Of a stretch of 64,000 bases of DNA, positions 2,101-63,132 are shown piece by piece. Position 1 is the first letter of the stretch. Every line of letters begins with the position of its first letter. The DNA lies in contig OZ024741.1 in NCBI GenBank assembly GCA_964016885.1, forward strand, positions 313,286,001-313,350,000, given 5' to 3'. Source of the DNA: Eledone cirrhosa. Lineage: Eukaryota. Both the position numbers and the translations under genes were made by a program. The notes under the pieces were generated by a model, which was not told where the DNA came from, did not search any database, and was given only the letters and a program-made list of their open reading frames with translations.

Positions 2101-2235
2101 AATGTGAAGCAGGAAAGTTTGGTGTTGCTTGTAATGAGACCTGCCATTGTATCAACAACACGAACTGTGACAAGCGAAATGGAACATGTTTAGATGGATG
2201 TTCTGCAGGTTATACTGGTGTCAATTGCCAAGAAG
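2101..2235 (+). CDS. EGF-like exon copy 1
   Basis: ttttAG|AATGT...CAAGAAG|GTatct; [45 protein letters not shown]. Confidence 0.85.
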
Positions 2236-2339
2236 GTATCTAATATAATTGTTACGTAATGATTATACACACGCGCACACACATACACACACCCACAAAC
2301 ATACACATATACATATATATGTATATATATATATATATT

Positions 2340-3820
2340 TATTAAAATAACAGATTAAAGTTTAAGCAAAGAATCGCTGCTTTCACCCTTAACGGGATCT
2401 TCTGAAACTAACAAAGTCAATCTGTAAACGCAGAACTGGATATTTCAAAAAACGTTGCAACCGGAGGAAGACAGGAAGACGATACTTTGGTTCGTGGTAA
2501 CGTTCGCTGGCAAAGAACGGGAAAAAACGAATAATACGTCATTAATAGGAGCGGTGAAAAACAATTACGCGGAAAGACAGAACCATGTTTATGGTATAAA
2601 AGAGGTCGTAGACTAATGTTCTCTTAGGTGGTGCATAGAGACGTTCTCTGGCAGTGAACGAAACAACTAAGATAATAAGTCATATGTGGAGCGTGGAGAA
2701 CAATAGCACGCAAAGACAAAACCACGTAAATGGTATAGCAGAAGTTGTAGACTAAAATTCTAACTCGGAGAGCAAATGAATCTCCGCTACAGAGTTAAGA
2801 ACAAAGTAAATAAATACAATACATAAGTATTAGAAATAAATAAATACATACACGCAAACAGATACGTACATACACAAGCAAACGCAAAACCTTACCATAG
2901 GTATACCAAACCACGCACATATAAATATGTGTGTATGCTTGTGTACAAATAAATAAATAATTATATAAACGTATATAAGTAAATAAATATATATAACAAG
3001 CGCACACACACACCTACATATAAATACACGAATGTACGGAGACTTGAGTCAACTAAAACAAGAAGTACACATATACACCCACCCACCATACGTACGAACC
3101 TGCATACTTACGCAGACGCAAAACTCTCGAATACACATAGCCAAACCCTAAATACCAGAATATGGAAAAAATTATACGCCATAACAGTCAGATATACGTA
3201 CGAGAAGGTATACATACCTTCAGAAAACATACGGGTAATATATACTTACCTATGCAAATAAGTAAAGGAATAAACAAAACATATACTTAGCTCCCACATC
3301 AAGACGTAAAATATCCACGTATAGATCGCACTATCCGTTAGGGTATAACGTGGGGCTGTAATACAGGAAAGTTTTGTGCAATTTATGTTTACAATATATA
3401 TATATATATATATATATATATATATATATATATATATATATATATATATGTATATATATATATATATAACTATATATATATATATATATATATATATATA
3501 TATATATATATATATATATACACATATATATATATATATATATATATATATATATATATATATATATATATATATATATATATATATATATATATATATA
3601 TATATATATATATATATAGAGAGAGAGAGAGAGAGAGAGAGAGAGAGAGAGAGACATATATATATATATAGTAATAATAAGTTTGAAGACTAAAATCCAA
3701 AGAGGGCCCGATAAAGATAAATATATATCAAATATATAGGAACCGTAGAGAAAATATTTATTAAAATTACAGATTAAAGTTTAAGCAAAGAATCGCTGCT
3801 TTCACCCTTAACGGGATCCC
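2340..3820 (-). mobile_element. Non-coding insertion with ~60-bp direct terminal repeats, possibly Penelope-derived
   Basis: ACAGATTAAAGTTTAAGCAAAGAATCGCTGCTTTCACCCTTAACGGGATC at ~2350 and ~3769; related sequence inverted at 54540-54845. Confidence 0.45.
3394..3670. repeat. Long (TA)n(GA)n compound microsatellite
   Basis: Directly visible; similar (TA)n/(CA)n tracts follow nearly every exon. Confidence 0.95.
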
Positions 3821-3835
3821 GTTCTACGTCCATTT

Positions 3836-4330
3836 TATCTAGAATAAGGACGGGTTGGAAGAAGTTTAAGAAGCGTTTCTCCCTGCTTACAAAGGGACGG
3901 GTATATGATACCTGTGTGAGATCCGAGGATGCTGCATGGTAATTAGAAATGCTGAAGATTTACGACGGCTGGAGAGAAATAAAACAAGTATCCTCCGTTG
4001 GATGTGCAATTTTAATGTGGTTGAACGATCAAGCATAGACGAGTTGAGAAGGAAACTGGATATAATAGGGATAAGTTGTGGTGTGCAGGAGAGAAGGCTG
4101 AGATGGTTTAGATATATGATGTGCATGGAACAGGAGCGCTAGGTGCAGAAGTGCCAGGAAGTCCAAGTGGATGGAACACGCAGTAGACGTAGACCACGAA
4201 AAACATGGGCAGAGCTGGTGAAAATCACTGAGGAGATGACAAAGGACCGTGAAAAGTGGGAAGGTACAGTGTTGAAGAGGATCCGTCCAATCATTGCAAG
4301 CAGGGAAAAGCGAGCGGAAAAATGATAATA
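3836..4330 (+). mobile_element. RTE LINE 3' fragment
   Basis: LRRLERNKTSILRWMCN...VQERRLRWF...RRRPRKTW, RTE-clade C-terminal motifs. Confidence 0.85.
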
Positions 4331-59559: not shown

Positions 59560-61870
59560 CAGTCAAAGATACAGATATAAATACATATATATAGTCCAAA
59601 AATGTTCTTTCGTTGCACATCTGCAACTTCATCAGTGGTACTATTATGTATCCCTCCTGTTGCATTGCAAGTCTACGCCATTTTTATTTTATCTGTTTAT
59701 TTATTTATTTTTATTTATTTTTGTCTTCGTCCCTGCGCATGCGTTTGCGTTTGGGTGACTGTGTTTTGGTTATTGTTTTCTATCTTAGTTTATTAGTGTG
59801 TCTTTATATGTGTTTCTTGTTATTGTGCTTATGTATTTATTCATTTATTTATTTATATATTTATATTTCTCTTAAGTCAGTATTGTTTGTTTGGGTGTTG
59901 TTATTCCATTTAATTTTTCTGTTTAGCTTTGTCTTTTTAAGCTCTGTTTCGCTTGCCTCTTTGATTTGCCTACTTGCTGGCTCATTTCTATGTTTAGTTA
60001 TATTAATTTCTATGTTGTCTATGTTACCGTCATGTTGTTGTCTGGCATATTCGTATAGTACTGAACCTTTTGTTTGTTCTATTAATCCCCCCGCCCCCCA
60101 ATGTTGGTCTATACTTTCTCCTATGCCTCGATCGGTCTGGCCTATGTATGGAATTGTCATGTTTCTGCAAGTAGCCTCTGTACATCTTATGGTGTAGACT
60201 ACATTTCTAGTTTTACAGTTTATCTGGAGCTTTACTTTACATATAGCACATTTCTTACTAGTACAGTGGGTTTTCTTAAAAGGGTGTGTTTTGCTGATCA
60301 GGGATTTCGTAGTAGTTTCTGGTTTTTCTAAATACTTAATCTTTAAGTGGGTCTTTCTCAGGGTCTTTCTACATTTGTATCTGGGTCTTTCTACATTGGT
60401 TAGCTAATTTCCCACCAGCGATAGCGTCCACGAATATGACACTCTGGTATCTCTGGTTGTGGTAGCACGAGGTGGCTTTGCCTATCTCATGTTTAGTCCT
60501 ATCTAAGCTATTCGATGATTTGCTCCTGTATAATGGGCAAATTCCTTTCATCTCCAGTTCTATGAGGGTTTACACTTCTCAGTGGTTCCTTTGTATACTC
60601 TGATTCTGTCTCTTTGGTTGTAGCCAGAGAAATGCAAGCGTTTTATGAAGTGTTGGATGTGTCTTTCCATTTCTTTGGGTCGCACATGCGGGACACGTTC
60701 TTCATCACTCGTAGCAAGTTTGCGATCAGAATATTAAACTTAGCAGCACTGAACATTGCTGAGTATTTGAGTAACAGGTATTTGGAGGCCATGGGTTTAG
60801 CGTAGTGTGAGTGGGGAATTTTGGCCCTCTCGTATATAGTGTTAATCCACAGTTCCGTGTCTAATACAGGTAGTATATTATTAGGGTGATTGGAATGGTA
60901 TTCAATAGTTACAGATATACTCTGGTGTATGGAGTTAGCTATCTGCTGGATTATGTCCATTGTGCTATATTCTAACTTATATTTGTTAGTACTCCCTTGT
61001 GGTGGTGTCCTTATTTCTATATTAATATTTCCTACGTAACGAGAGTACATCATGAGGTCTATGGAGCTCCCTTCAATGAGATTTGTGAGTCTCATTTCCA
61101 ACCAAACCATATAAAGTTTGGCTACATCACCAGCTATGCTGATCCAAATGGCTGCTGCCTCATTTTGGGTGTAGAGCTTTATGTTGAATTTGAATATATA
61201 GCCCTTTAGAGTATTTCTAATACTAGCCCCCATTGCACGCGCGACCATTTCTTTTACCTGATCATCGTTTTTGGGAGTTGGTATAGATTTAGTCCACCCA
61301 ATTCAGCCTCCCACGGAATACTTTTTTGCCATTAAGGTTATGGTGGGGGGATCTACCTCTTATGGTTCTACTAGGGCAGAAACGGCTAAGAACACGGCTG
61401 TTTAGGTAATCGGTTTCATAAATAAATCTAAGTAGGAGGCCCAGCTCATCTGTGTCGACGTTGCAGACCACAACCTCACTCTCACTGATTATCTCCACAC
61501 AAGTTTCCACAGCAAAATCAATGTTAATGGATGGTTATAGAGATACAACGTCCATACTGCGTATTATGCAGTTAGATAGGTTTTTGTTTTTGTTGCACTC
61601 ATTGATTCTGCTGAGGAGGTCTTATGTGCTGTCACATAAATCTGGGGATATTTTGATTAAGTAGCGTATAACCACTGGGAGGAACTAGGAGATCCTGTAG
61701 TTGCTATCGATATTGGCTCCGCATACAAGTCCTGTTAGTGGTCCTGTCGACGAGTCGTCGAGTATCCTATGGTCTTTGAAGAGCACATATAAGGGTGGTA
61801 TGTCTTGTTAGACGCGTGGATGTTCATAGCAGTGGGTTTGCTTGGCTTTAGGATGTCGGTCCTCATCATC
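59560..61870 (-). mobile_element. Decayed Penelope-like retroelement (RT + GIY-YIG endonuclease)
   Basis: Minus-strand fragments PPLYVLFKDH, SMDVVSL*PSINID, YSRYVGNI (RYVDD box), LPVLDTELW, HYAKPMAS, then PYIGQTDRGIGESIDQH (GIY-YIG); stops and frameshifts. Confidence 0.85.
59591..59644 (-). ncRNA. Hammerhead-like core at the 3' end of the Penelope element
   Basis: Minus strand ATAGTaCCA-CTGATGA-a-GTTGCA-gatg-TGCAAC-GAAA-gaacatttt-TGGACTAT; stem III weak. Confidence 0.55.
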
Positions 61871-61949
61871 ATGTGAGCGTTGACGATCTCCTCTCACCCA
61901 TCATGTGTTTGTTGTGTAATTTCGCCTGGCAATATATTTGACTGCATCT

Positions 61950-62090
61950 GTCTGTGTGTGTGTGTGTGTGTGTGTGTGTGGGTGTGTGTGTGTGTGTTTG
62001 TGTATGTGTGTGTGTGTGCGTGTGCGTGTGTGTGTGTGCGTGTGCGTGTGTGTGTGTGTGTGTGTGTGTGTGTCTGTGTGTGTGTGTGTT
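61950..62090. repeat. (TG)n microsatellite
   Basis: Directly visible. Confidence 0.95.
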
Positions 62091-62997
62091 TATTTCAACG
62101 TAAAAATATCGCAAATACATATCGTAGTAACTGATAAAATATGGTGTAAATTTGAAGGATTATATTTGTTGTCTCCTATGATATTGTTTGTTTCATTCAT
62201 TATGTTATATGTATATATATATATTATATGTATATATATGTATGTATGTATGTGTGTGTGTAAGTGTGTATGTATGCATTTATATATGTATATTTATATA
62301 TATATATATATATATACATATATATATATATATATATATATATATATATATATATATATATATATATATATATATATATATATATATATATATAACATAT
62401 ATATATACAGTATATATTATATATATGCAAAAGGTAAATAGAAATAACAAGACAATCGGTACAGTATATGGAAGGGATATATTAGGATAACGTTTAATAT
62501 AGCAGGAATAGCGTCTCAGCATTTTGGACATTAGTCCTTCATTAGAAGAAAGAATGAGAAATAAAATAGAATGAGGGGACGGTTGAGTTTGAATTGGAAA
62601 AATATCCTCAGATAAAAATAACAGCTTCATTTATGTTGACAGCTCTTGCATTGTGTGTGTGTATGTACGTGAGTGTGTGTTTATTTAAATGTAAGAATGT
62701 CGCAATTACATATCGTGGTAACTGGTAGAATATGGTAAGATTTGGAAGGATTATATATGTTGTTTTTCTTATAATATTTTTTGTTTCTTTCATAATTCTT
62801 TTTTAACATTGCATTTAACTGAACTAAAAATCCATGTATATTTTATAGAGGATCGATATAATATTCAATAAATATATGAGTGCATTTGTTTATCACAATA
62901 ACAATATAATCTGAAACTTTCGTATGAAATTGTATCATTGATATCTGTATGTAATTAATGATATCTTCAACATTATCATATATATTGATTTTTTTAG

Positions 62998-63132
62998 AAT
63001 GCCCAGTAGGATCGTTTGGTTTTGCTTGTAAAGGGACCTGCCATTGTATCAACAATATTAACTGTGACAAGCGAAATGGAATATGTTCAGATGGATGTTC
63101 TGAAGGTTATATTGGTGTCAATTGCCAAGAAG
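62998..63132 (+). CDS. EGF-like exon copy 19 (most divergent intact copy)
   Basis: ttttt[49 protein letters not shown], all 8 Cys kept. Confidence 0.85.

Follow-up and report, generated by a model that had tools for sequence, protein, structure and literature searches.

We analysed a 64,000-nt stretch of the Eledone cirrhosa genome (3.0 Gb), hereafter the window (contig OZ024741.1, here C2; C2:313286001-313350000), which carries part of a tandem array of exons encoding an epidermal growth factor (EGF)-type repeat. The whole window (1..64000, + strand) lies inside one predicted gene of ~920 kb, which probably encodes a type I membrane protein whose ~97 EGF exons, spliced mostly in series, would yield an N-glycosylated, disulfide-braced stalk of ~4,400 residues, a prediction drawn from the sequence of 1.09 Mb examined around the array. 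Its design carries to an extreme what is known from mollusc SCARF-like receptors and from coding repeats of the LPA type.

Within the window, searching in translation and with a DNA profile recovered 19 copies of the 135-nt EGF exon, all on the + strand, each with AG upstream and a phase-1 end (19/19), and 17 of them combine open reading with a GT donor. The first-pass annotation, made from the letters of this window, had described 19 phase 1-1 exons of 135 nt, and all were found at the span it claimed. The features are as follows, in window coordinates.

2101..2235, + strand: EGF exon 1, open, AG/GT
5033..5167, + strand: EGF copy 2, donor GA, dead
5924..15132, no strand: satellite of ~450 bp, ~20 units, ~88% identical, unrelated to the exon, filling intron 2
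15916..16050, + strand: EGF exon 3, open
18468..18602, + strand: EGF exon 4, open, first among 12 near-identical copies (4-15)
21064..21198, + strand: EGF exon 5, open
21881..22015, + strand: EGF exon 6, open
24602..24736, + strand: EGF exon 7, open
27200..27334, + strand: EGF exon 8, open
29495..29629, + strand: EGF exon 9, open
32093..32227, + strand: EGF exon 10, open
36100..36234, + strand: EGF exon 11, open
38880..39014, + strand: EGF exon 12, open
41476..41610, + strand: EGF exon 13, open
45355..45489, + strand: EGF exon 14, open
48087..48221, + strand: EGF exon 15, open
50624..50758, + strand: EGF exon 16, open
55087..55221, + strand: EGF exon 17, open
58137..58336, no strand: 200-N scaffold gap within the array, the sole gap in 312.99-314.05 Mb
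59075..59209, + strand: EGF copy 18, in-frame TGA and donor AT, dead
62998..63132, + strand: EGF exon 19, open

The central block of the window (copies 4-15) is a very young burst, its twelve copies encoding merely five distinct peptides that vary at two positions. The introns were evidently duplicated along with the exons, with introns 7 and 9 of the window matching at 100% across 2,463 nt and 8-kb segments sharing 97-98% mutual identity. The recent tandem amplification proposed at first pass is supported. A diagnostic allele of this block occurs at 14 places, 12 of them in the window, all within the array and none on unplaced contigs. Genome-wide, a 17-nt exon pattern gave 180 matches versus 0 for a reversed control, and the pattern is therefore not a product of chance. 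Blocks of a 103-115-bp minisatellite, apparently unequal in unit number, occupy two of the duplicated introns (window 34958-35934 and 44355-45189).

The window accounts for about one eighth of the array (19 of 156 copies). In the 1.09 Mb an EGF profile found 161 copies (157 on the + strand), with the array extending over 313.10-313.93 Mb on C2 and 137 copies lying beyond the window and reaching as far as C2:313930639. The 156 copies placed between the signal peptide (SP) exon and the transmembrane (TM) exon of the host gene comprise 97 that are open with AG and GT, 39 without a splice site, 15 halves, one 132-nt copy that stays in frame but has an altered end, and four that have AG and a GTAT donor but break the frame; a stop-bearing copy stands at C2:313190919. 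Together the 97 open exons predict 4,364 residues with 164 sequons, and the stalk of ~765 aa initially estimated from the window thus grows to a predicted ~4,360 aa once the whole array is counted. Three sequons per typical repeat, as the annotation had it, hold in this block (16 of 19 window copies) but not array-wide, where the mean is 1.7. Nor are copies 1-3 and 17-19 the edges of the array, as their divergence had been taken to mean: the array continues for ~185 kb on the upstream side and ~580 kb on the downstream side. The divergent copies belong to older classes without being unusual there, and those most closely related to copies 1 and 19 lie 250-430 kb away. At ~313.48-313.72 Mb the array is arranged as a higher-order repeat, of which seven measured units (20.3-23.1 kb) are 93-95% identical, every one containing live exons, splice-dead copies and one half copy. 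The common donors lack a G at +5, most reading GTATCT, and 79 distinct exon sequences occur among the 99 spliceable copies. One broken EGF copy on the - strand (C2:313907324), within the array gene, and a - strand lectin exon just past the tail are perhaps what is left of an antisense paralogue.

The ends of the gene were discovered by comparing the C2 flanks with those of a second cluster, located on C10 (25.9-27.3 Mb) by pattern search, for shared ends. The SP exon (C2:313089081-313089144, 64 nt, phase-1 donor) lies ~197 kb upstream of the window and the TM exon (C2:314007700-314007805, 106 nt, phase 1 in and 2 out) ~658 kb downstream, a distance of ~920 kb from one to the other; across the 1.09 Mb, profiles built without the C2 copies identified exactly one + strand SP exon, at E 7e-42, and a single TM exon, at E 4e-16. 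Phases are compatible throughout (SP exon out 1, all EGF exons 1-1, TM exon in 1), the SP exon was intact at 7 of 7 places examined, and the TM helix has a hydropathy of 3.1 across 19 residues. With SP and TM exons found in adjacent DNA and sequons present, the suggestion of a membrane-anchored glycosylated stalk gains support as a prediction. The tail exon, which closes with a stop codon, would begin at C2:314010501 (9 residues) or at C2:314010623 (254 acidic repeat residues), and neither form contained a Pfam domain or an NPxY or YxxL/I motif. The exon is a minisatellite of 12-bp type whose frames and lengths vary among paralogues (9 to 254 residues), and since this repeat contains little T, its open frame of 253 codons does not speak for coding. 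A segment shared with C10 at C2:313.092-313.094 Mb was considered as a source of 5′ exons and set aside, being by eye apparently a decayed long interspersed nuclear element (LINE).

Searches for additional domains were negative within their range. No + strand match to an F-type lectin or galactose-binding exon appeared between the SP and TM exons (150 homologues; seven octopod proteins), no EMI domain was matched between the SP exon and the first EGF exon (homologues; Pfam on open reading frames, ORFs, of ≥35 aa outside repeats), and a Pfam scan of 66 non-repeat ORFs of ≥35 aa returned nothing above cut-off. The protein tyrosine phosphatase (PTP) domain that the first-pass annotation proposed to look for nearby was not recovered: homologues matched neither a phosphatase nor a TM exon on the + strand, and none of 72 genome PF00102 matches and none of 37 matches to the Octopus TM-PTP part fell at C2:310-316 Mb. 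The only lectin exon nearby, of F-type (C2:314022571-314022915, - strand), lies just past the tail; neither this exon nor a lectin gene at 315.4-315.5 Mb was accepted as the 5′ end, each being on the wrong strand or downstream.

The repeat itself gave weak, sub-threshold EGF matches in Pfam, with laminin EGF aligning to residues 14-44, and the classical domain therefore spans the exon junction. Compared with solved structures, a profile of the 19 exons matched Tie2 and SCARF1 in their EGF regions (PDB 8hna, 2gy5), which, together with the phases, agrees with the original description of symmetric, eight-cysteine exons of MEGF/SCARF type; a word search with a single exon gave no match, and an AlphaFold model of one exon was of low confidence (pLDDT 57). 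If the cysteines pair as in laminin EGF, all four disulfides of the repeat would lie inside one exon, and exon gain or loss would therefore leave no unpaired cysteine.

To describe how selection has acted on the array, live (spliceable) copies were compared with splice-dead ones in a set of 137 full-length copies, which leaves out 19 classed as truncated, two of these later shown to be 134 nt long with GT. A stop or frameshift is present in 2 of the 99 spliceable copies versus 19 of the 38 splice-dead ones, 12 of the 19 sharing one stop, and after recount the broken copies that look spliceable number four. Distinct stop or cysteine lesions amount to 7 in spliceable and 27 in splice-dead copies, and live copies have too few variants at cysteine codons (p=1e-6), a depletion that dead copies do not show (p=0.41). 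In clusters diverged by ≤6%, damaging minor alleles number 0/70 in live copies (20% expected) versus 4/23 in dead copies, and among alleles unique to one such cluster 0/16 (p=0.03) versus 3/9. Private mutations, for which only the live-against-dead contrast was used because the singleton test favours damaging alleles, were damaging in 5/40 live versus 19/44 dead cases (p=0.003). All of these tests use existing copies, which are not fully independent, so the p values overstate independence because the copies share history. The avoidance of stops and cysteine loss, combined with a ratio of nonsynonymous to synonymous change (pN/pS) near 1, fits selection on fold and frame rather than diversity: the frame and disulfide scaffold have been preserved, probably until recently, while the remaining residues drift. 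Sequence diversification of the cassettes, as envisaged from the window, is not borne out, with no positive selection at such a pN/pS.

The gene is one of many carrying the same ends. Among 54 candidate SP exon matches, 40 were listed, and among those listed 20 are on C2, 19 on C10 and 1 is unplaced; TM-acceptor matches number 23. Five C10 paralogues of 34-73 kb have the order SP-(EGF)n-TM with n = 16, 5, 12, 7 and 32 open exons, and open-exon number across paralogues, including the C2 array gene, runs from 5 to 97. The closest proteins are Octopus lectin-EGF-PTP receptors, at ≤68% identity per repeat (O. sinensis XP_036365016 and XP_036365020, the ≤68% being to O. sinensis; O. vulgaris CAI9733299), and the O. 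sinensis relative has RefSeq isoforms distinguished by the presence or absence of entire EGF exons (43, 43, 88, 131 and 176 aa). In E. cirrhosa the Octopus lectin-EGF-TM-PTP receptor is matched best at C2:257.5 Mb, ~55 Mb from the array, and at 261.8 Mb, and the array repeat has 45% aa identity to the PTP gene of this genome. At 257.5 Mb this gene has ~7 post-lectin EGF exons, five of them of the 135-nt phase-1 type, and its TM exon (C2:257.54 Mb) has the same acceptor, donor and phases as that of the array gene. Exons of the array are 88% identical among themselves, whereas their identity is 77% to those of C10 and 59% to those of the PTP gene. In a poorly resolved tree built from 137 distinct exons, the PTP-gene exons stand apart from all others (support 96/51), and C2 and C10 are mostly apart.

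From the homology between its TM exon and the one in the lectin-EGF-PTP receptor, we infer that the array gene is a stalk-only derivative. The stalk-only family would accordingly descend from an F-type-lectin/EGF/TM/PTP receptor, with both end domains lost and the exons amplified gene-specifically. The kinship to mollusc receptor PTPs suspected from the window is supported by the homologous TM exon, the same 135-nt repeat, and Octopus PTP receptors as the closest proteins. The receptor PTP gene is present in two copies (C2:257.5-257.65 and 261.74-261.87 Mb), 4.2 Mb apart and alike in exon spacing. In the 10 pairs of five C10 paralogues, the TM exon (25899131, 25975616, 26037462, 26090357 and 26910782) is much more diverged (pN 0.26, pS 0.14) than the intron downstream of it (0.045), which is not the case for the SP exon (pN 0.04), and this makes diversifying selection on the C10 membrane helix possible. 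C10 exon pairs picked by intron distance have pN ~ pS, a choice that biases pI downward.

We propose that the array grows via unequal crossing-over, seeded by its repeats, which would add units of 2.5 kb, 5-9 kb and 22 kb. Copies losing a splice site would drop from the mRNA and then decay without harm, because every exon is phase 1-1, and the same symmetry would make copy gain, loss and death neutral to the frame. Selection would hold frame and fold and leave surface residues nearly free. The product would most likely be a long glycosylated surface rod without a catalytic tail that serves a recognition cluster of SCARF-like kind as a spacer, as a decoy or as a scaffold for binding, and the variable under selection would be length, not the choice of cassette.

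Several observations weigh against one gene with a full-length stalk. The first of the four frame-breaking copies with AG and GTAT donor follows just five open exons, and a full-length mRNA must therefore skip these four, so that some skipping is required. In all, 58-59 of 156 array copies are broken, and one scaffold gap lies inside the array. Overall pN/pS is 0.88-1.36, nowhere significantly different from 1 or below it; at a 4% cut the cluster-unique alleles of live copies (0/9 damaging, p=0.14) fall short of significance, as do private mutations of live copies taken alone (5/40, p=0.18). The acceptor shared with paralogues yields just the 9-residue tail, and the divergent first EGF exon of the C10 paralogues did not turn up at the corresponding position of the C2 gene. 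No annotated octopod protein of stalk-only design turned up, which is weak evidence, as it is weak evidence for lineage specificity.

Some of these points would equally follow if the gene, a receptor that functioned in the past, were decaying or only partly read, the array now growing as an exon-bearing macrosatellite that gives a short, truncated product or none. We consider this unlikely: 38% of copies are broken, dead copies have been amplified together with live ones, pN/pS is near 1, the tail is minimal and four frame breakers look spliceable, but recent clusters avoid cysteine loss and stops in live and not in dead copies, 85 open exons stand between the first two spliceable frame breakers, and the SP and TM exons are intact.

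A cassette library, either Dscam-like or freely skipping, in which each transcript takes a subset of exons to give isoforms of varied length or specificity, appears more doubtful still. Cassettes of Dscam type are mutually exclusive, with one variant per transcript, and rely on docking and selector RNA elements. Exons that are symmetric throughout, common donors without +5 G, the need to skip at least four copies in any case, the 79 distinct sequences among 99 spliceable copies and the exon-skipping isoforms of the Octopus PTP relative all speak for such a library. However, the 12 newest window copies encode five near-identical peptides, so choice among them adds little; amino-acid change is not in excess, and the same donor type is seen in the PTP gene, whose EGF exons are few. 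Length variation through partial skipping is compatible with the single-gene stalk as well. That the megabase gene is an artefact of assembly or annotation (several genes with missed ends, false duplications or sequence wrongly joined across the gap) is very improbable: the 200-N gap at 58137, the two introns identical over 2.4 kb and the mere 34-73 kb spanned by paralogues would suit it, but higher-order units 93-95% identical are not copies of each other, the order of copy types over the gap is the same as in the higher-order repeat, sensitive profiles found no internal SP or TM exon, and the 14 places of the window-type allele are all in the array, none on unplaced contigs.

Known systems resemble the array gene in part. 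The snail LG5R SCARF-like 1A/1E genes, as described in PMC13712769, are clustered single-pass receptors with SP, Tie2/SCARF-type EGF modules, TM and a small domain-free tail, and relatives with lectin and PTP domains belong to that family. The array gene likewise has SP, EGF/Tie2-like modules only and TM, and its paralogues are clustered (C2, C10). Its tail would have 9 residues from one acceptor or 254 from the other, and no domain was recovered in either form. It differs in that a single member spreads ~97 intact exons, nearly identical to one another, across 920 kb together with pseudoexons and higher-order repeats, and in that no infection association is known for it. Independent loss of lectin and PTP in the snail genes and in this family is as possible as common descent. 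In Biomphalaria, EGF domain loss separates haplotypes of the SudRes1 MEGF/GBD receptor PTPs, according to PMC12297450. With such receptors (SudRes1, LG5R 1C and the Octopus proteins named above) the array gene shares tandem MEGF-type EGF repeats, SP, a single TM helix, the same 135-nt phase 1-1 repeat and a homologous TM exon, and in those genes EGF number varies by haplotype or isoform. Since no lectin or PTP exon was found in it, the array gene does not belong among them, and it has ~97 EGF exons versus the ~7 post-lectin ones of the PTP gene of this genome; the inferred parent of the family does fit MEGF/GBD receptor PTPs of the SudRes1 kind.

MEGF10/Draper/CED-1 receptors carry an N-terminal EMI domain and cytoplasmic NPxY and YxxL motifs. 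The eight-cysteine atypical EGF repeat is common to these, SCARF1, Tie2 and the array gene, but in the latter no EMI, NPxY or YxxL/I was found, which places it outside the group, and it apparently derives from lectin-PTP receptors. PMC9334734 notes two MEGF10 genes in Aplysia. The coding variable number tandem repeat KIV-2 of LPA, as described in PMC11462820, is similar in that exon and intron are amplified tandemly as near-identical units that lengthen one protein. The array gene differs from it in its domain, its membrane anchorage, its 2-3x more units and its nested repeat orders with dead copies. In LPA-type genes the repeats enter the mRNA in series, as is predicted for most open exons of the array, and unit number varies between alleles. 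The literature searched, which did not extend to subscription journals or supplements, yielded no description of an EGF exon array in any cephalopod.

If expressed, the array would rank with the longest arrays of coding exons on record, that of LPA having up to 40 units. One locus displays the life cycle of an array, from block duplication through splice-site death to dead copies hitch-hiking in higher-order repeats, and the dead copies provide a built-in neutral control. Standard annotation would probably split or miss the gene. By analogy, the predicted stalk is a candidate for an immune or recognition role, and the resemblance of its family to snail receptor clusters mapped to parasite resistance makes it a testable candidate for cephalopod recognition. 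A broader picture, which we put forward only tentatively, is that ~40 stalk-only proteins arose from a lectin-phosphatase receptor in an octopod lineage and are tuned in length (5 to ~97 modules), the largest, from a megabase gene with ~100 exons spliced in series, changing size between individuals as nested repeat units cross over unequally, while a TM helix that diverges fast may set partner specificity in the paralogues.

Upon screening other reads, 92-111 restriction-site-associated DNA (RAD) reads per sample carried the exon family in three other samples, reads of a kind that cannot give copy number. Sequence run X1 covered introns and is DNA; from run X4 came a single genomic contig of 151 nt covering the exon, and runs X5 and X6 gave only short AT-rich matches. 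Elsewhere in the genome, C16, C20, C22, C23 and C27 hold dozens of equal-scoring lectin-domain exons, many ~100-200 kb apart, a spacing that suggests large recent segmental amplification. Intronless PTP matches in long open frames (to ~1,250 aa) at C14:9.15-9.16, C22:17.64 and C10:12.09 Mb are possibly retrogenes.

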